Shown here: positions 20,639 through 30,152 of the stretch, in pieces
How the letters are laid out: every line of letters starts with the position of its first letter
Numbering within the stretch: position 1 is the stretch's first letter
Sequence record: NC_102531.1
Reading direction: 5' to 3' (one strand)
Source of the DNA: a phage
DNA: 64,000 nucleotides
Notes under the pieces: model-generated
Told to the model about the DNA's origin: nothing
Seen by the model: only the letters and a program-made list of their open reading frames with translations
Databases searched by the model: none
Position numbers and translations under genes: made by a program

Positions 20639-20715
20639 TGGTCTCCACGGAGTGATTCGAACACTCGACCTCCTGATCCCAAATCAGGCGCTCTACCAAG
20701 CTGAGCTACGCGGAG
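20639..20715 (-). tRNA. tRNA-Pro (anticodon UGG)
   Basis: Hand-folded cloverleaf: C1-G72 acceptor, D-arm GCTC/GAGC, anticodon loop TTTGGGA, T-loop TTCGAAT, encoded CCA. Confidence 0.8.
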
Positions 20716-20726
20716 TATTTACTATT

Positions 20727-20801
20727 TGGTGGCCCTGGGTGGAATTGAACCACCGTCTGGCGATTATGAGTCGCTTGCTTGAACCTTCCAGCTACAGGGC
20801 C
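20727..20801 (-). tRNA. tRNA-Met or tRNA-Ile2 (anticodon CAU)
   Basis: Hand-folded: acceptor GGCCCTG/CAGGGCC, anticodon loop CTCATAA, T-arm GGTGG-TTCAATT-CCACC, encoded CCA. Confidence 0.7.
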
Positions 20802-20802
20802 T

Positions 20803-20878
20803 TGGTGCTGATGGCAGGACTTGAACCTACAACCTATTGATTACAAATCAATTGCACTACCGATTGTGCTACATCAGC
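20803..20878 (-). tRNA. tRNA-Thr (anticodon UGU)
   Basis: Hand-folded: acceptor GCTGATG/CATCAGC, D-arm GCAC/GTGC, anticodon loop TTTGTAA, T-loop TTCAAGT, encoded CCA. Confidence 0.8.
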
Positions 20879-20883
20879 AAAAA

Positions 20884-20982
20884 GGTGCTAGGTGATGGAA
20901 TCGAACCACCTATGTATTCAACGACTACCTCGTCTATTTTCAGGATTAAAAATCCTCGCCCTTGCCAAAGGGCTTACCTAGC
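20884..20982 (-). tRNA. atypical tRNA-like gene (99 nt; anticodon loop UUUUUAA, putative UUU; roughly 30-nt variable region)
   Basis: Perfect 7-bp acceptor GCTAGGT/ACCTAGC, D-arm GCCC/GGGC, T-arm GGTGG-TTCGATT-CCATC, anticodon hairpin AGGA-TTTTTAA-TCCT; the region between anticodon and T-arm is far longer than in canonical type I or II tRNAs. Confidence 0.4.
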
Positions 20983-21080
20983 TCAGTATGTTGACCATGT
21001 TGCTAGTCGGCGATGACGACTGTAACATTTGATAATCCGGTTCTGCTTCCGGCTTTCGCTTAATTACAAGGTCAACAATG

Positions 21081-21171
21081 TGGCGGAGAGTAATGGAATC
21101 GAACCATCATCGAGTCATACCCAACGGGACGGTTTTCAAGACCGCTTGAGCACCATTGCTCCCTACCCTCC
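21081..21171 (-). tRNA. tRNA-Ser (anticodon UGA)
   Basis: Hand-folded type II tRNA: anticodon loop CTTGAAA, long variable arm, T-arm GATGG-TTCGATT-CCATT, encoded CCA. Confidence 0.75.
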
Positions 21172-21285
21172 TTTATAAATTATACTGATAATGACACTGA
21201 TTTTCGAGCAGTTAGTGACTAGTATAAACGACGATAAATATCAATGCCATTATCTGTATTATTTATGCATCTAAAAATATAAATT

Positions 21286-21372
21286 TGGTGGGGAGTGGTG
21301 GAGTCGAACCACCCGAGTCGCAATGACAATAGATTTACAGTCTACACCGCTACCTCTACGGGATAACTCCCC
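21286..21372 (-). tRNA. tRNA-Tyr (anticodon GUA)
   Basis: Hand-folded type II tRNA: acceptor GGGGAGT/ACTCCCC, anticodon stem-loop GTAGA-CTGTAAA-TCTAT, long variable arm, T-arm GGTGG-TTCGACT-CCACC, CCA. Confidence 0.7.
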
Positions 21373-21376
21373 AATT

Positions 21377-21451
21377 TGGCACCCCGTACTGGACTCGAAC
21401 CAGTGTCAACGGCTTAGAAGGCCGCTGCTTTATCCACTAAGCTAACAGGGC
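21377..21451 (-). tRNA. tRNA-Arg (anticodon UCU)
   Basis: Hand-folded: D-arm GCTT-AGTGGATA-AAGC, anticodon stem-loop GCGGC-CTTCTAA-GCCGT, T-arm CTGG-TTCGAGT-CCAG, CCA; two G-U pairs in acceptor stem. Confidence 0.7.
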
Positions 21452-24388: not shown

Positions 24389-24943
24389 TTACTCCCTGCT
24401 GTCAATATCAAAACTCATTGCAATACGGTATGCCTCTTCTAATGGTAAGAGTCTCCCCCACACATCCCAACCGACATCAAGCTGCCTGCCAAACAACTGT
24501 TGTGTGGTTCCGTGAGCATGACCGAACAGTTGGACTGATCCGTGAGGCTTTCTGTTCCACTTTGCAAACTGGTAATGGCTCATACAGATCAAATTCTTGT
24601 TGTGGCGAAGCTCGTAATAATCTACAACCTCATGACCGAACTCTTTCATAATTCTGACAGTCGTCCTTGTGTCATGGTTGCCACGAACAAGAATAATATG
24701 TCCGTTCAACATATTTAGAATATCTGGAAGTAAGTTGTTGATATTCTTATCATTAGTGCACGCAATATCTCCCAAGTGGAACACAGTGTCTGCAGGTGAC
24801 ACAACAGAGTTCCACTCGGCGATGATTCCTGCATTCATACTGTCAAGATTACGATTATACTGAGATCTGTGTTTTTGACATGAATCAAACTCCATGACCC
24901 GCTGGTGGAGAAAGTGTGTGTCGCTTGTTACAAAGTATTTCAT
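24389..24943 (-). CDS. calcineurin-like metallophosphoesterase (putative RNA 2',3'-end healing phosphatase)
   Basis: Start ATG 24943 (MKYFVTSDTHF...); motifs SDTHF, GDIACT, GNHD, GHAHG match the metallophosphatase signature. Confidence 0.65.
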   Translation of the reverse strand: MKYFVTSDTHFLHQRVMEFDSCQKHRSQYNRNLDSMNAGIIAEWNSVVSPADTVFHLGDIACTNDKNINNLLPDILNMLNGHIILVRGNHDTRTTVRIMKEFGHEVVDYYELRHNKNLICMSHYQFAKWNRKPHGSVQLFGHAHGTTQQLFGRQLDVGWDVWGRLLPLEEAYRIAMSFDIDSRE

Positions 24944-24950
24944 ACATTCC

Positions 24951-25361
24951 TCATTTAAGTTTAATGCAGTTTTTAAGCTGGCGTTCCATACGATCCACAA
25001 CCCTGTCTGGAACATCATGAATGCTTTTATTACCGTGGCGGTTTTCAACCACGATCACGGTATAACTATACCCATTACTGATTGCCATGTCAATATATTC
25101 TTGCACATGTTTTTCTTTTGTAAACGTATTACTTACCACGATACGGTCGTATCCCATACGCATCATATCTTCTACGTTATCTTTGCACCATTTTGCTGCA
25201 AGTGTTACTTTACTTGCATCCCAGTTGTAATTTCCGTCATCGTCGTACCAGAACATGTCGTTCTCAAAATGTGGATACAGACCTTCTAAAGATAGCGCAT
25301 TTGCCAGTGTTGATTTGCCAGACCCTGGTAGACCACGCACGATATATAGCATTTTAGACAT
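24951..25361 (-). CDS. P-loop polynucleotide kinase-like protein
   Basis: Start ATG 25361 with GGAGGA RBS; Walker A GLPGSGKST near N-terminus, VVSNTF later; small kinase resembling the T4 Pnkp kinase domain (from memory). Confidence 0.55.
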   Translation of the reverse strand: MSKMLYIVRGLPGSGKSTLANALSLEGLYPHFENDMFWYDDDGNYNWDASKVTLAAKWCKDNVEDMMRMGYDRIVVSNTFTKEKHVQEYIDMAISNGYSYTVIVVENRHGNKSIHDVPDRVVDRMERQLKNCIKLK

Positions 25362-25461
25362 AGTAATCCTCCGTTTTAATTTTAATGATAGTATACCTAA
25401 CTGTTTTGTTAATTTCAAGTGTTGACACTAGGTTATTTGTGTGGCAGGATAGACTGACAAA

Positions 25462-26397
25462 ATGACAAATGAGGAACGTATGATGAAGTATTTTAATGCA
25501 GACGACTTGGTTGACAAAGGTCTTGTAACCAGTAGATATTACCCAGATCTTGGGTTAAAGATCTATAAATATGCCAGAAAAGTATTTTACAACAATTTAT
25601 GGCATTTGTCCCCTCGTTTACTAGAGTGCCGAGGCATTGTTGTCGGTAATGAAGGAAATGTTGTGGCATGGCCCTTCACAAAAGTGTTTAACTTGGGAGA
25701 AAACTCCACCAACCTGCCTGACAATAAGCTTGTGACGGCGGTAGAGAAAAAGAACGGATTCCTTGGTGTGGTATCATCTCATAAAGGTGAACTATTGTTC
25801 TCAACAACCGGATCTATTGATTCTCCATATTGTAACCTCGCAAAGGAAACCATCCAGGAGCAATGTGGTAATTTAGATCTTATCAAGAAGGTTATGGGTA
25901 ATGAAAACATGACATTCATGTTTGAAATTTGTCACCCTTCAGATCCGCATATTGTTCAGGAAGATCATGGCGCATATTTGATAGGTTGCAGATATAATGA
26001 TTCTGGAATAATGCTACCAGAGGCAGCTTTAGATGGGATTGCCAAATACCTTGGTGCAAAACGTCCTCACACTGTGCGTGAAATTCCGTTCAGCTATGCA
26101 AAAGAATTAGCTGCAGAAACAAGAGGCGAAGGGTATATGATCCGTAAGCCTTACTACCCTTATGACCTGCAGCTGAAGATCAAGTCTCCATACTATCTGG
26201 CACGGAAGGCCGTAATGAGGTGTAAAGCTTGGAAGATTTGGGATGATGATATCTTTAAACGTGTTGACGAAGAGTTTTACGGCATGGTAAACTTCATTCG
26301 TAGCAATTACACAGAAGATGTGTGGAACTGTCTCCTGGAGCAGGAACGCCGCGAGATACTTGACTGCTATTTCCACAACGAGGACTATATGCAATGA
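25462..26397 (+). CDS. RNA ligase, T4 Rnl1 family
   Basis: LLECRGIVVGNEGNVVAWPFTKVFNLGEN and EKKNGFL parallel T4 Rnl1 ALECRGIMFE...KFFNLNEN and KEDGSL (recalled); alternative start ATG 25480 has the better RBS. Confidence 0.75.
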   Translation: MTNEERMMKYFNADDLVDKGLVTSRYYPDLGLKIYKYARKVFYNNLWHLSPRLLECRGIVVGNEGNVVAWPFTKVFNLGENSTNLPDNKLVTAVEKKNGFLGVVSSHKGELLFSTTGSIDSPYCNLAKETIQEQCGNLDLIKKVMGNENMTFMFEICHPSDPHIVQEDHGAYLIGCRYNDSGIMLPEAALDGIAKYLGAKRPHTVREIPFSYAKELAAETRGEGYMIRKPYYPYDLQLKIKSPYYLARKAVMRCKAWKIWDDDIFKRVDEEFYGMVNFIRSNYTEDVWNCLLEQERREILDCYFHNEDYMQ

Positions 26398-26744
26398 AGA
26401 AGTTGATTGTGTGGCTGGATGACTTGAGAGATCCGTCAAATTATGGGCTCCCAGACGCTATTTGGCTAAAGAATTCCTCCGAGTTTATGGATTTTATTGA
26501 CGATAATAGAAAGCTCTACAGACGCGTTTCTGAGTGGCATATGGACAACGACCTTGGAGAGGTATTCGAAGGGTACGATTGCCTATCTATGTTGGAGGAA
26601 AAATTTGTATTTGGTAAGCCTCCTGTAGTTGACAACGTGAAGATTTTCGTGCATACTTCTAACCCATCAGCTGCTCGTAAATTCATGCTTGCAGCTGACT
26701 CGTTTAAAAAGTTCGGAATAGAGATTAAACAAAACATCTACTGA
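26394..26744 (+). CDS. hypothetical protein translationally coupled to the RNA ligase
   Basis: ATGA overlap with the ligase stop; 116 aa; no motif recognised. Confidence 0.5.
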   Translation: MKKLIVWLDDLRDPSNYGLPDAIWLKNSSEFMDFIDDNRKLYRRVSEWHMDNDLGEVFEGYDCLSMLEEKFVFGKPPVVDNVKIFVHTSNPSAARKFMLAADSFKKFGIEIKQNIY

Positions 26745-26752
26745 GGACACTT

Positions 26753-27514
26753 ATGCGACGACTGATCATTATCTCCGGTGCTGGTTTGAGCGCTGAATCT
26801 GGTATCCCCACTTTCCGGTCTGGTGGCACTGCAATGTGGGAGAATTTCAGCATCAATGAGGTGTGTAACATCCACACCTTCGCCAAGAACTACTATAAGG
26901 TGCATGACTTTTACAATGCACGACGTGTAGCTCTGGGCAGTGTTGATCCTAACCTTGCACATCTCCGGATCGCTGAGTGGTATTCCCGCTGGTCTGGTCG
27001 TGTGATCAACATTACCACCAATGTGGATGATTTGCTGGAGCGTGCTGGTGTAAAACATGAAGATATTTTACATGTCCACGGGTATTTGCCAGAAATAGTC
27101 TATGAGGACGATGAAGGAAGTAACGTTATTAAGGACATTGGATACTCTGAGGTAGATGCAGGAAAGTATACCTGGGTTAAGCCTAATGTAGTGTTCTTCG
27201 GAGAAGTAGCTCCGAAGTATACAGACATGTACGACCTGTTGACTTCCCTTACGAGTAATGATATGGTTATCCTTGTAGGGTGTTCCAACACAGTTATCAA
27301 TTTTAACTGGGAGCTATTCCCTGCCTGCAATAAGGGAACCAAACTACTGATCGTTAACAAATACGACTCACAGCATCTAGAGGAGAATGGCATTTCACGT
27401 AGTGATATTTACCAATATGAGGATCGCGGCATCCCAGTTTGGTTTAACGGGGCGGTTGATGCTTTCTCTGATAAAACATTCATTGAGATCGTAGAAAACT
27501 TTATGGAACTTTAA
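26753..27514 (+). CDS. Sir2 (sirtuin)-family NAD-dependent enzyme, no recognisable Cys4 zinc module
   Basis: GAGLSAESGIPTFRSGG, TTNVDDL, HVHG, VVFFGE and VGCS line up with sirtuin Rossmann/catalytic motifs; no CxxC pairs between the HG and FGE motifs. Confidence 0.7.
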   Translation: MRRLIIISGAGLSAESGIPTFRSGGTAMWENFSINEVCNIHTFAKNYYKVHDFYNARRVALGSVDPNLAHLRIAEWYSRWSGRVINITTNVDDLLERAGVKHEDILHVHGYLPEIVYEDDEGSNVIKDIGYSEVDAGKYTWVKPNVVFFGEVAPKYTDMYDLLTSLTSNDMVILVGCSNTVINFNWELFPACNKGTKLLIVNKYDSQHLEENGISRSDIYQYEDRGIPVWFNGAVDAFSDKTFIEIVENFMEL

Positions 27515-27527
27515 AAGGAGACCTTTA

Positions 27528-28241
27528 ATGCTGAATACCAAATTGATTGACAACCTGGAAAAACTGTCCCAACCTGAAAACTACCTTTGGTCTGCTAACT
27601 GGGTGGAAAACTGGAACCGTGTGGCAGCTAAAGTGAAAAAATCATACACACCGTTCGAATTACAGCTTAGCTTCATTGAGGAAGAGTTCAATGAAGTTTT
27701 GGAAGAGCTGGAGAAAGGTGATGGTGGAGATCACCTGCTAAAAGAGGCCTGCGATCTTCACGTTGTCACAAGTTATGCCGCTTATCTTGTTAATGACAAT
27801 CACGAAAAGTGGTCAAGCCTGTTTGATAATCCACGAGGCCTTAAGTTCAAGATCGGTGAGTTCTATGATACCCTGATCGCTGCGAAAAACACACCTAAGC
27901 AAAGAGCGTCAGCTTACCGCTTAGCGGAGTTGTCAACAGCTTTGCTGTTCCAGCTTCGCGGCGATGTGTGCGGGATGATGCGTAAGGTTCTCAAATCGAA
28001 TGACAGCAAGTTTGCAAAGATTAACCATCTACGGTATTCACACGGTGCCAGTGCAGATATGCCTGCTGAACAACTCGTAGAGTTGGAGATTAAAGATCTT
28101 GAGCGACGCTTTGATGGTCGATATGAAGGTTTTGTTGCTAAGGAAGAATTCTACAACGGTAATAAAGTTATCATATTCCTTGACAGTAAAGGTAAGATCA
28201 TGAAGCCTTCAAGCTTCAAGGATGTAACAGAGTATATTTAA
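27528..28241 (+). CDS. MazG-like nucleotide pyrophosphohydrolase domain protein (N-terminal) with uncharacterised C-terminal half
   Basis: EEEFNEVLEELEKGDGGDHLLKEACDLHVV resembles the MazG/HisE all-alpha E-x2-E...E-x2-D metal-binding signature; 237 aa. Confidence 0.4.
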   Translation: MLNTKLIDNLEKLSQPENYLWSANWVENWNRVAAKVKKSYTPFELQLSFIEEEFNEVLEELEKGDGGDHLLKEACDLHVVTSYAAYLVNDNHEKWSSLFDNPRGLKFKIGEFYDTLIAAKNTPKQRASAYRLAELSTALLFQLRGDVCGMMRKVLKSNDSKFAKINHLRYSHGASADMPAEQLVELEIKDLERRFDGRYEGFVAKEEFYNGNKVIIFLDSKGKIMKPSSFKDVTEYI

Positions 28242-28248
28242 CAACATA

Positions 28249-28275
28249 GCCGGGATCACCCGGCTTTACTTGTTG
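28249..28275 (+). terminator. hairpin plus weak U-tract
   Basis: AGCCGGG-atca-CCCGGCT followed by TTACTTGTTG. Confidence 0.35.
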
Positions 28276-28613: not shown

Positions 28614-28869
28614 TCTTGCTAAACCTGTAGAAGCACACCAGTTTGACGGAAGCTCTTCATCAGTATCTGATCTGCAACGGTGGATTGATACAGGTGTGTT
28701 TACATCGTCACCTGTTCGGACCAGAGATCTTCGTCGCATGTGTGAGCTTGTAGAGCCGTTTGGTAACCTAGTCTTGTACCATGGAGATTGGTTAGTTGAC
28801 TTTATGGGAGACTGGTTGGTAATGAGTAAAGAAGAGATGTTTAAAATTTTTAAGGAAGAGGCCGAGTAA
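28600..28869 (+). CDS. hypothetical protein
   Basis: 89 aa, AAGGAGG RBS. Confidence 0.45.
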   Translation: MPLFNLAKPVEAHQFDGSSSSVSDLQRWIDTGVFTSSPVRTRDLRRMCELVEPFGNLVLYHGDWLVDFMGDWLVMSKEEMFKIFKEEAE

Positions 28870-30152
28870 TGCATCAAATCAAAACAACACTGTACGCACT
28901 GAATAAAGATGGCAGCTACCAACAGTGGAAAGTATTCACGGATGGTGATAAGGTTATCGTAGAGTTTGGCAAGCTTGATGGTAAACTGCAATACAAAGAG
29001 ACGATCTGCACACCTAAGAACGTGGGTCGCGCCAATGAAACTACAGCTGAGCAACAGGCCGAGCTGGAAGCGATCAGTAAGTGGGAAAAACAGGTCCGAC
29101 TTGGGTACGTGGAGAGTATGGAAGATTGTGAGCAAGGTGTTGATCTTCTACCCATGTTGGTGCATGACTACCTGAAGCGTGGCAAGGCACTTAAATTACC
29201 TTGCTGGATCTTGCGTAAGTTAGATGGCCTTCGTCTACTTGTTGTTTTCCAGAATGGTGAGCCTAAATTTATTTCCCGTGGTAATAAGTCCTACCCTATT
29301 CAAGGGAAGCTTCTGGAGCAACTTCGCTCTTTCCACCTAACCACCGGGATTAAACAGCTCGACGGAGAGCTCTATATTCATGGTCTGCCTCTGCAGAAAA
29401 TAGTATCTCTTGCTAAACGGTGGCGCACACAGGAAGAAATTCAGGCCGAGATCGATAAAGACTACGAGGCAGATAAAAAACGCCGTCAGGCTGCGATTAA
29501 AGCAGGTTTAGCAACATACAAAAACTTCAACAAGATGGACATTCCTGTTGATGTTGAGCCTGTTCGTGATGATTTGCGTTACGGAGGGTACTGCAGCTAC
29601 GACTTAGAGTATCATATTTTCGATATTCCTAGCGATAAGGTGTGGTGGGATCCTGAAACAGAGTCTGGACGCTGTAAGGATCTTATGGAGGCAAATGGTG
29701 CTATTGCTTCTTTGATGCTTGATCATATTAAGGTTGTTGATGCAGAGCTTGCATACACAGTTGATCGGTGCGAAGAGTCTGTTGGTATATTTATGTCTGA
29801 GGGATATGAAGGTACCATTATGCGTAACTTCTGTGGTAAATATGAGTATGGTCAGCGAACATCTGAAGCATTGAAATGGAAAAAGTTCAACGACGCAGAG
29901 GTGAAAGTTATTGACGTTGAGAAAGATAAGAATGATGAAGGTGTTCTTATCTGTGTTGACAAGGAAGGTGTTGTTGTTAAAATGAAGATGAAAGGCACGC
30001 ACGAGGAGCGTAGCTATGACAGGATGCAGGAAATGATCGGCAAGTTTATCACCTTCAAATACCAAGCAAGGACAGAAGACAACAACTACCAATTCCCTGT
30101 CGGTATCTGCGTTCGAAATGTTAACCCAGACACTTGGGAGGTGCTGGAATGA
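28869..30152 (+). CDS. ATP-dependent polynucleotide (DNA) ligase
   Basis: 427 aa; nucleotidyltransferase motif I KLDGLR (KxDGxR); TAATG overlap with upstream gene. Confidence 0.6.
   Translation: MHQIKTTLYALNKDGSYQQWKVFTDGDKVIVEFGKLDGKLQYKETICTPKNVGRANETTAEQQAELEAISKWEKQVRLGYVESMEDCEQGVDLLPMLVHDYLKRGKALKLPCWILRKLDGLRLLVVFQNGEPKFISRGNKSYPIQGKLLEQLRSFHLTTGIKQLDGELYIHGLPLQKIVSLAKRWRTQEEIQAEIDKDYEADKKRRQAAIKAGLATYKNFNKMDIPVDVEPVRDDLRYGGYCSYDLEYHIFDIPSDKVWWDPETESGRCKDLMEANGAIASLMLDHIKVVDAELAYTVDRCEESVGIFMSEGYEGTIMRNFCGKYEYGQRTSEALKWKKFNDAEVKVIDVEKDKNDEGVLICVDKEGVVVKMKMKGTHEERSYDRMQEMIGKFITFKYQARTEDNNYQFPVGICVRNVNPDTWEVLE

Follow-up and report, generated by a model that had tools for sequence, protein, structure and literature searches.

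What does a sirtuin do in the midst of phage genes that resemble RNA repair enzymes? The question is raised by a 64,000-nucleotide stretch of the phage record NC_102531.1 (the window, in what follows), in which a 253-residue sirtuin and, directly upstream of it, a 116-residue protein of the cREC family lie between a T4 Rnl1-type RNA ligase and a MazG-like nucleotide pyrophosphohydrolase, with genes for a polynucleotide-kinase-like kinase and a calcineurin-like metallophosphoesterase in divergent orientation next to them. The locus is already known: it is the literature's prototype, Pfam and PHROGs include both families, and near-identical genomes are publicly available by the hundred. Section 3.7.3 of Iyer, Burroughs, Anantharaman & Aravind (2022; PMC9503650), which takes phage V5 as the prototype, predicts exactly this neighbourhood and a mechanism for it. 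The reading preferred here is that published model, according to which the six genes are an rV5-type phage RNA end-healing and -sealing cassette with a Tpt1-like sirtuin and a catalytic cREC; we place its probability at about 0.45.

The cassette would most likely repair tRNAs cut by host anticodon nucleases. Its sirtuin would strip a 2'-phosphate from RNA with nicotinamide adenine dinucleotide (NAD+) in the manner of Tpt1/KptA: the RNA 2'-phosphate would first attack C1'' of NAD+, and a His109-assisted attack of the ribose 2''-OH would then yield nicotinamide and an ADP-ribose cyclic phosphate. The acidic pocket of cREC would open a cyclic phosphate (either an RNA 2',3'-cyclic end or ADP-ribose 1'',2''-cyclic phosphate), and MazG would cleave the nucleotide by-product. 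These enzymatic roles follow Iyer et al. (2022); the gene identities, motifs and packing are conserved across rV5-, Mydo- and ~150-kb-type phages. RNA repair is favoured by catalytic motifs that are intact in all six cassette enzymes, by the tight packing of the genes, by the single hairpin that follows them, by recurrence of the cassette and by a nearby tRNA cluster. A Tpt1-like sirtuin in particular is favoured because its clade repeatedly adjoins RNA-end phosphoesterases, and these fall into three unrelated folds (cREC, metallophosphoesterase, HAD_SAK), and because its distribution is roughly complementary to that of KptA.

The sirtuin and its remodelled small domain

The 253-residue protein matches Pfam SIR2 (PF02146) over profile positions 1-178 of 180 (E=5.9e-27; 95.2 bits, the cut-off being 24) and phrog_2162 at E=3e-109; its closest PDB sequences are those of SIRT5, E. 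coli CobB and Sir2Af1/2 (class III), at E ~1e-21 to 1e-19. The landmarks by which the original prediction had recognized a sirtuin (GAGLSAESGIPTFRSGG, TTNVDDL, HG within HVHG, VFFGE and VGCS) are all in place. So are the catalytic histidine and the NAD-binding residues, which were looked for in an alignment of the protein with ten phage relatives, E. coli CobB (from the MG1655 genome) and T. maritima Sir2 (Sir2Tm; identical to PDB 1yc5_A). H109 corresponds to H116 of Sir2Tm, G9-A10-G11-S13 to G21-S25, F21-R22 to F33-R34, and N90, D92, S178 and N202 to N99, D101, S189 and N214, respectively. Conservation was counted across the 120 close homologues, all aligned together: H109, F21, R22, N90, D92, S178 and N202 are invariant (120/120), and in the GAGxS motif G9/A10/G11 are retained in 119 and S13 in 118. 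The class III motif Y54-x-x-R57, aligned with the Y/R of CobB, is also kept in all 120. We take this pair to be the counterpart of the anion-binding, acidic-acyl pocket pair of SIRT5 and CobB; in the phage protein it could serve as a phosphate binder. The invariant histidine and the Y/R pair would be needed in a Tpt1-like and in a deacylase reaction alike, since both begin at C1'' of NAD+ and continue with attack by the 2''-OH.

An AlphaFold2 model built with 60 sequences is confidently a sirtuin fold (predicted local distance difference test score, pLDDT, 90; predicted template-modelling score, pTM, 0.88), and Foldseek returns CobB (6rxq) as its top match (E=5e-18, template-modelling score 0.75-0.84), with Sir2Af1 and SIRT5 also found. 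The sequence nevertheless falls far below every NCBIfam cut-off for CobB (NF001753 / NF040867; 122.3 vs 243 and 103.5 vs 320 bits). It also has no credible PADLOC match and meets SIR2_2 (PF13289) only at E=0.027. Judged by its sequence, the protein is a class-III-derived sirtuin with the full catalytic set; it is not an orthologue of CobB, nor does it belong to the SIR2 proteins of the defence type.

What sets its clade apart is the small domain. Between HG and FFGE, where the original prediction had seen no cysteine pairs, the protein has 37 residues and no cysteine at all (its sole cysteines are at positions 38, 177 and 192), vs four cysteines each in E. coli CobB and Sir2Tm. The zinc ligands C124, C127, C148 and C151 of Sir2Tm become Y, D, gap and gap, with seven residues deleted at the second cysteine pair. 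Among the 120 homologues this segment holds no cysteine in 67, one in 51, two in 2 and more in none, and the columns of the second pair are empty throughout. Where the canonical motif QN[IV]D has Gln, this clade has Thr, again in 120/120. The AlphaFold2 model retains a three-stranded sheet (110-118, 124-128, 142-146; block-mean pLDDT ~94-97) where the zinc ribbon would be; two conserved residues, Y131 and W141, probably hold this zinc-free sheet together. The clade is defined by its zinc-less small domain and the change from Q to T.

A wider search of 1.84 billion cluster representatives returned 5,646 relatives at E<=1e-3. Among the best 150 of these, 86 have at least four cysteines arranged as CxxC...CxxC (and mostly the Gln), while 56 have from none to two (and mostly the Thr); cross-tabulation gives 72 with Gln and at least four cysteines, 29 with Thr and none, 10 with Thr and at least four, and 8 with Gln and none. 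The hairpin landmarks '(D)IGY...KPNVV' are common to zinc-bearing and zinc-less groups, so that the zinc-less form appears to be derived from a zinc-ribbon ancestor with its scaffold retained. A tie between zinc loss and the 'VYPAA' loop of CobB and Sir2Tm, which reads 'INFNW' in the phage protein, was considered and rejected: 'YP' is kept in just 10 of the 150 best relatives and its replacement is a subfamily-wide trait. Remodelling of the clade on this scale (zinc ligands lost, Q changed to T, the 'VYPAA' loop replaced) would fit a non-canonical substrate.

The conventional alternative is an NAD+-dependent lysine deacylase of the CobB/SIRT5 type (deacetylase/desuccinylase) that resets acylation of host or phage proteins during infection, its substrates possibly including the neighbouring ligases with their catalytic lysines; cREC would then act separately, with Rnl1, and adjacency of the genes would reflect early-gene clustering. 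The best sequence and structure matches just listed speak for such an enzyme, as does retention of the full catalytic set, acidic-acyl pocket included, in every close homologue. So does a low isoelectric point (pI 4.9 for the protein and a median of 5.1 for the clade, resembling the 5.4 of CobB and Sir2Tm). Its distance from the CobB cut-offs counts against a deacylase, and so does the placement of the altered features (zinc module, QN[IV]D Gln, 'VYPAA' loop), all of them near the substrate/NAD site of canonical sirtuins, together with the clade's repeated proximity to RNA-end phosphoesterases that fall into three unrelated folds. We regard a deacylase as somewhat unlikely, although a serious contender.

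A different suggestion makes the sirtuin an ADP-ribosyltransferase or NAD+ glycohydrolase serving host takeover or counter-defence, directed at a host protein, nucleic acid or NAD-derived signals, with cREC and MazG degrading the ADP-ribose-derived products. Sirtuins are capable of ADP-ribosylation or NAD+ hydrolysis (PMC9503650, section 3.3.2), and the cREC-Nudix fusions of jumbo phages that are described in the same paper would, like MazG at this locus, suit the breakdown of ADP-ribose derivatives. The catalytic histidine is invariant, however, though unnecessary for simple NAD+ hydrolysis; neither PADLOC nor SIR2_2 points to the defence NADase families, and no macrodomain or other de-ADP-ribosylase gene is found as a neighbour. 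These observations make the suggestion improbable.

cREC and the four-gene unit

The original prediction assigned the 116-residue protein an unknown fold. The sequence in fact matches Pfam cREC_REC (PF20274) at E=1.9e-14 (54.5 bits, the cut-off being 27), as do all of its full-length homologues, and has the receiver (CheY-like) fold with conserved aspartates. It is accordingly classed as a stand-alone receiver-fold cREC and a predicted cyclic-phosphate phosphoesterase, with an acidic pocket made up of D9/D10, D51-x-D53 and T88/S89, to which H87 and K96 are added. The family was defined in PMC7824862 and has never been found with histidine kinases; PMC9503650 describes it as 'experimentally uncharacterized', its activity being a family-wide prediction. 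Residue 113, in a column where 90% or more of homologues have Arg (C-terminus '..R.NY'), is Gln here, with Lys preceding, as it also is in at least one of the closest relatives (P0122). At one other locus (L036:2287-2973) a stop-to-stop frame of 229 codons has cREC as its C-terminal half; counted from the first ATG it has a ~60-residue N-terminal extension with no Pfam match, which may represent a longer variant or an unrecognised start codon.

Rnl1, cREC, the sirtuin and MazG form a single four-gene transcription unit, of which cREC and the sirtuin are the middle genes; both of these frames lie at the coordinates where they had been placed (Table 1). As had been noticed, the ligase TGA (26395-26397) overlaps the cREC ATG (26394-26396) as ATGA, and cREC ends just before the sirtuin starts, 8 nt (26745-26752) separating its TGA (26742-26744) from the ATG at 26753. 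The Shine-Dalgarno sequence of the sirtuin, GAGGA, overlaps the cREC stop codon, and 13 nt separate the sirtuin from MazG. The unit is likely closed by the GC-rich hairpin at 28248-28265, a perfect 7-bp palindrome (AGCCGGG-ATCA-CCCGGCT) that matches the terminator consensus and, in a terminator-like scan, scores on both strands. In the divergent intergenic region (25362-25479) a promoter scan found no qualifying forward-strand site. By eye, a perfect -35 hexamer, TTGACA, is seen there at 25421-25426, with a weak -10; no promoter is claimed. Relative to the 93%-identical locus L002, the ratio of nonsynonymous to synonymous substitution (dN/dS) is 0.065 for the sirtuin, 0.08 for cREC and 0.064 for the MazG-like protein, and the differences in the sirtuin and cREC are mostly at third codon positions. 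Matches above the Pfam gathering cut-offs, taken with this low dN/dS, argue that the sirtuin and cREC frames are expressed and selected rather than chance.

Table 1. Genes and other features of the cassette region, with the matches on which they are named
Feature	Coordinates	Strand	Size	Matches and remarks
Calcineurin-like metallophosphoesterase, candidate 3'-end healing enzyme	24389..24943	-	184 aa	Metallophos_2 E=4.1e-7, Metallophos E=7e-7, phrog_547 E=1e-52
P-loop polynucleotide-kinase-like kinase, candidate 5'-end healing enzyme	24951..25361	-	136 aa	AAA_33 E=1.6e-9, Zeta_toxin E=4.7e-6
T4 Rnl1-type RNA ligase	25480..26397	+	305 aa	RNA_lig_T4_1 E=4.9e-15, phrog_562 E=1e-65
cREC	26394-26744	+	116 aa	ATG 26394-26396, TGA 26742-26744
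Sirtuin	26753-27514	+	253 aa	ATG at 26753
MazG-like nucleotide pyrophosphohydrolase	27528..28241	+	237 aa	phrog_671 E=4e-22, weak Pfam PRA-PH, two ExxE motifs
GC-rich hairpin, likely terminator	28248-28265	.		7 pairs, 6 G-C; directly 3' of MazG stop
ATP-dependent DNA ligase	28869..30152	+	427 aa	DNA_ligase_A_M, DNA_ligase_OB_2

With its neighbours, the locus encodes what is by sequence a complete RNA end-healing and sealing set plus three extra genes. The metallophosphoesterase has intact DxH, GD, GNHD and GH..HAH motifs and 1xm7 as its closest PDB sequence. The kinase has the P-loop GLPGSGKS and matches phrog_2071 and phrog_505 ('polynucleotide kinase'); no relative was found among PDB sequences at E<=0.01. 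Rnl1 carries the adenylylation motif K96-x-N-G; its open reading frame begins with an ATG at 25462 (311 residues), and a GAGGA at 25471-25475 together with the annotation of phage Bas52 favours the ATG at 25480. MazG is a named component of the published neighbourhood (PMC9503650), and all loci of the rV5, Mydo and ~150-kb types have a DNA ligase beside the cassette.

The segment 25400-28300 has 120 matches among phage records at 90-97.4% identity, nearly all to rV5-like Escherichia myoviruses of the Vequintavirinae (for example naam, rV5_ev147, slur16 and the BASEL phage RudolfGeigy/Bas52). The window DNA is 97% identical to rV5-like phages, and its host phage is an rV5-like Vequintavirus. 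The annotation of Bas52 lists a 'putative phosphoesterase' and a 'polynucleotide kinase' in one direction and, in the other, RNA ligase, a hypothetical protein, 'sirtuin domain NAD-dependent deacetylase', three hypothetical proteins and ATP-dependent DNA ligase. Seven tRNA genes (20639-21451, minus strand; ARAGORN) lie ~3 kb upstream of the cassette, and Bas52, too, has a tRNA cluster at about that distance. Those named in the window are Pro-TGG, Met/Ile-CAT, Thr-TGT, Ser-TGA, Tyr-GTA and Arg-TCT; a 99-nt gene at 20884-20982 is returned as 'tRNA-???' with a 4-base anticodon (atcc), and its counterpart in Bas52 is annotated tRNA-Lys. Between 18 and 25 'Campylobacter phage' records (host C. jejuni; e.g. 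MG065655.1, MG065652.1, MG065676.1, MG065677.1) are 96-98% identical to the region; several are unannotated or just ~59 kb long, and the host label looks mis-assigned or contaminated. In Ralstonia phage RSP15 (NC_030948.1; H144) the Rnl1 match falls under a gene called 'metallophosphoesterase', hinting at fusion or mis-annotation.

Company kept by the two families in other phages

Neighbourhoods were compared at 63 viral loci with the sirtuin clade and 25 with cREC, 24 of the latter newly scanned for neighbours. The sirtuin loci comprise 28 of T5-like type, 12 with a ligase/kinase cassette within 8 kb, 12 among DNA methyltransferases and 11 others. In the T5-like loci NrdD is followed, at some remove, by the sirtuin and then by HAD_SAK_2, a predicted 'Swiss-army-knife' RNA-repair phosphatase, an arrangement that PMC9503650 gives as its configuration 3. 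The cassette is present at 12 of the 63 sirtuin loci and at 15 of the 24 scanned cREC loci. Even when profile searches are included, cREC is found within 8 kb of the sirtuin in just 8 loci; it directly follows Rnl1 in seven of these and lies upstream of the phosphoesterase in the eighth (L036). Six Mydo-type loci have the order phosphoesterase, Rnl1, cREC, kinase, sirtuin, DNA ligase and, farther on, MazG, with the kinase splitting cREC from the sirtuin. The cREC cassette of ~150-kb phages consists of cREC, phosphoesterase, Rnl1, kinase, DNA ligase and MazG (two such cREC loci have no detectable Rnl1 and kinase), and at least six ~150-kb contigs hold both a sirtuin and a cREC cassette, 31-35 kb apart. 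A pattern scan for cREC gave no match on any contig with one of the 28 T5-like sirtuin loci. Direct adjacency of cREC and sirtuin is confined to the rV5 type. The constant partners of cREC are Rnl1 and the phosphoesterase; the sirtuin is a detachable element that co-occurs in the same genomes.

These arrangements bear on the suggestion, made in the original prediction, that the 116-residue protein is a partner of the sirtuin, either bound to it physically or regulating it as a subunit, perhaps as a receiver switch that accepts a phosphate. The 8-nt gap, the Shine-Dalgarno sequence that overlaps the stop codon, the common operon and the standing of receiver domains as classic regulatory modules all invite that suggestion. 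It is outweighed by the restriction of adjacency to one phage type, by the kinase that intervenes in the Mydo-type loci, by the tens of kilobases that separate the two genes in ~150-kb phages, by the failure of the cREC scan on the T5-like contigs and by the lack of any association of cREC with histidine kinases (PMC7824862), and is improbable. What the original prediction observed is confirmed, apart from the unknown fold, which does not hold; its interpretation is supported in part.

Other proteins accompany the sirtuin elsewhere. At three cassette-bearing loci (L040:7251-7787, L050:7076-7561, L055:7087-7572) a ~160-residue phrog_652 frame lies between kinase and sirtuin, with no detectable cREC; as a candidate NADAR-like ADP-ribose-processing protein it finds no support in searches of Pfam (E up to 10) or PDB sequences. 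The 12 methyltransferase-context loci also hold the families phrog_8514 and phrog_9509. In the ~150-kb group a ~205-residue phrog_8514 protein consistently precedes the sirtuin (L032-L035, L037, L038, L041, L051, L054, L056, L058), as does a very acidic phrog_9509 protein in six loci, with a DNA methyltransferase nearby in most; among these neighbours only the methyltransferases have a Pfam domain.

Distant relatives, mostly zinc-bearing and many of them on jumbo-phage contigs, were gathered with an alignment query, which yielded 48 unique loci (single-sequence queries returned nothing for P0202 and four loci for P0183). Their three nearest genes are heterogeneous: a GNAT acetyltransferase is among them at 3 loci, 2H/Acb1 at 2, and HAD_SAK, NUDIX and NAMPT at 1 each, while cREC lies within the locus in 2 of the 48. 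This heterogeneity implies that the RNA-repair link belongs to the enterobacterial-phage clade and not to the whole subfamily. KptA was counted in 98 phage records. These are mainly from jumbo phages of Erwinia, Dickeya, Klebsiella and Serratia and from phages of Clostridioides, and neither Escherichia nor Salmonella figures in the counts by named genus. For the sirtuin clade the number of records is 980, with Escherichia (372) and Salmonella (287) dominating; the two distributions are roughly complementary and largely non-overlapping.

Several considerations weigh against the Tpt1-like cassette. Every retained sirtuin residue is equally required by a normal protein deacylase, and an acidic protein, similar in this respect to CobB and Sir2Tm, is unexpected as an RNA-binding enzyme. 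Ligase, kinase and cREC are all missing from the vicinity of 28 sirtuin loci, a further 12 lie among DNA methyltransferases, and the neighbours of distant relatives are mixed, GNAT acetyltransferases included. Healing and sealing might in principle be achieved by the kinase, the metallophosphoesterase and Rnl1 with no 2'-phosphate step, and the E. coli host has kptA itself. Literature searches found no experiment on any cREC protein or on this sirtuin clade. A role as a protein deacylase stays in contention because most lineages have the sirtuin detached from the cassette, and that role also gains from the occasional GNAT neighbour and from the fact that cREC tracks Rnl1 rather than the sirtuin. 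The boldest proposition, that the zinc-less clade is an NAD+-dependent RNA 2'-phosphotransferase convergent with Tpt1/KptA, accompanied by a cREC that opens cyclic phosphates, is put forward only tentatively.

Were the cassette model correct, the reach of sirtuin chemistry would include RNA phosphate ends as well as acyl-lysine, and this would be the first sirtuin with a nucleic-acid phosphate as its physiological substrate; the receiver domain would for its part acquire a catalytic function beyond two-component signalling. The rV5-like phages would have a yeast/plant-style (2'-phosphate) route of tRNA repair beside a T4-style one, which would explain the resistance of widespread coliphages (therapy candidates and BASEL phages among them) to tRNA-cleaving defences. 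The window is that of an ordinary rV5-like phage and presents no new kind of system; with the idea already published as a prediction, novelty would lie in its confirmation.

Comparison with known systems

The closest precedent is configuration 2 of PMC9503650 ('Escherichia phage V5 / Proteus phage Mydo'), whose gene set is identical to that of the window: sirtuin, T4-like tRNA ligase, cREC, nucleotide kinase, MazG and calcineurin-like phosphoesterase all lie within 24389-28241. The searched passages of that paper make no mention of zinc-ligand loss (one occurrence of 'zinc' lies outside the displayed text), of a Q-to-T signature, of cREC tracking Rnl1 and the phosphoesterase, or of detachment of the sirtuin.

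With the defence-associated SIR2 proteins (ThsA, DSR1/2, SIR2-HerA) and with the macrodomain-linked SirTM, to which the original prediction had suggested a comparison, the phage sirtuin shares the SIR2 superfamily alone, and it belongs in neither group. A defence-type assignment was rejected on the sub-threshold SIR2_2 score and on a PADLOC output consisting of one spurious 13.6-bit match; HerA, SLOG, TIR and Macro were not found as neighbours of the phage sirtuin. An assignment to SirTM was rejected on the neighbours in the window, which are Rnl1, cREC, MazG, kinase and phosphoesterase; for the distant relatives, Macro is absent from the top 25 of the 40 Pfam families represented among 142 neighbours. 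The NARP3 paper (Science Advances 2026) resembles a report on phage Sir2 only through the phrase 'anti-phage Sir2-HerA', and is irrelevant here; apparent mentions of cREC in a tRNA review are likewise spurious, being the author name de Crecy-Lagard.

Like CobB, SIRT5 and Sir2Af, the phage sirtuin has a Rossmann fold with GAGxS, F-R, N-x-D, catalytic His, G-x-S and Y-x-x-R; unlike them, it has no Cys4 site, Thr in place of Gln, the 'INFNW' loop and a phage RNA-repair context. Its predicted likeness to Tpt1/KptA is in the reaction, a two-step NAD+-dependent removal of an RNA 2'-phosphate that would yield nicotinamide and ADP-ribose 1'',2''-cyclic phosphate (PMC9503650). Tpt1/KptA has the ADP-ribosyltransferase fold in contrast to the Rossmann fold of the sirtuin, and the relation would be a functional analogy at most.

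The cassette as a whole can be compared with phage T4. T4 Pnkp and Rnl1 heal and seal tRNA, countering the PrrC anticodon nuclease, and the cassette likewise has a kinase, a 3'-phosphoesterase and an Rnl1-type ligase. Unlike the T4 system, it consists of separate polypeptides and adds cREC, sirtuin and MazG, which have no T4 counterpart. The phosphoesterase of Clostridium thermocellum Pnkp is calcineurin-like, not HAD, and the window's phosphoesterase is also calcineurin-like rather than HAD. Finally, cREC differs from CheY-like response regulators in standing alone, with no histidine-kinase partner, and in its conserved D-x-D, H-T-S-N-P and K96; it can be thought of as a receiver that is predicted to be an enzyme rather than a switch.

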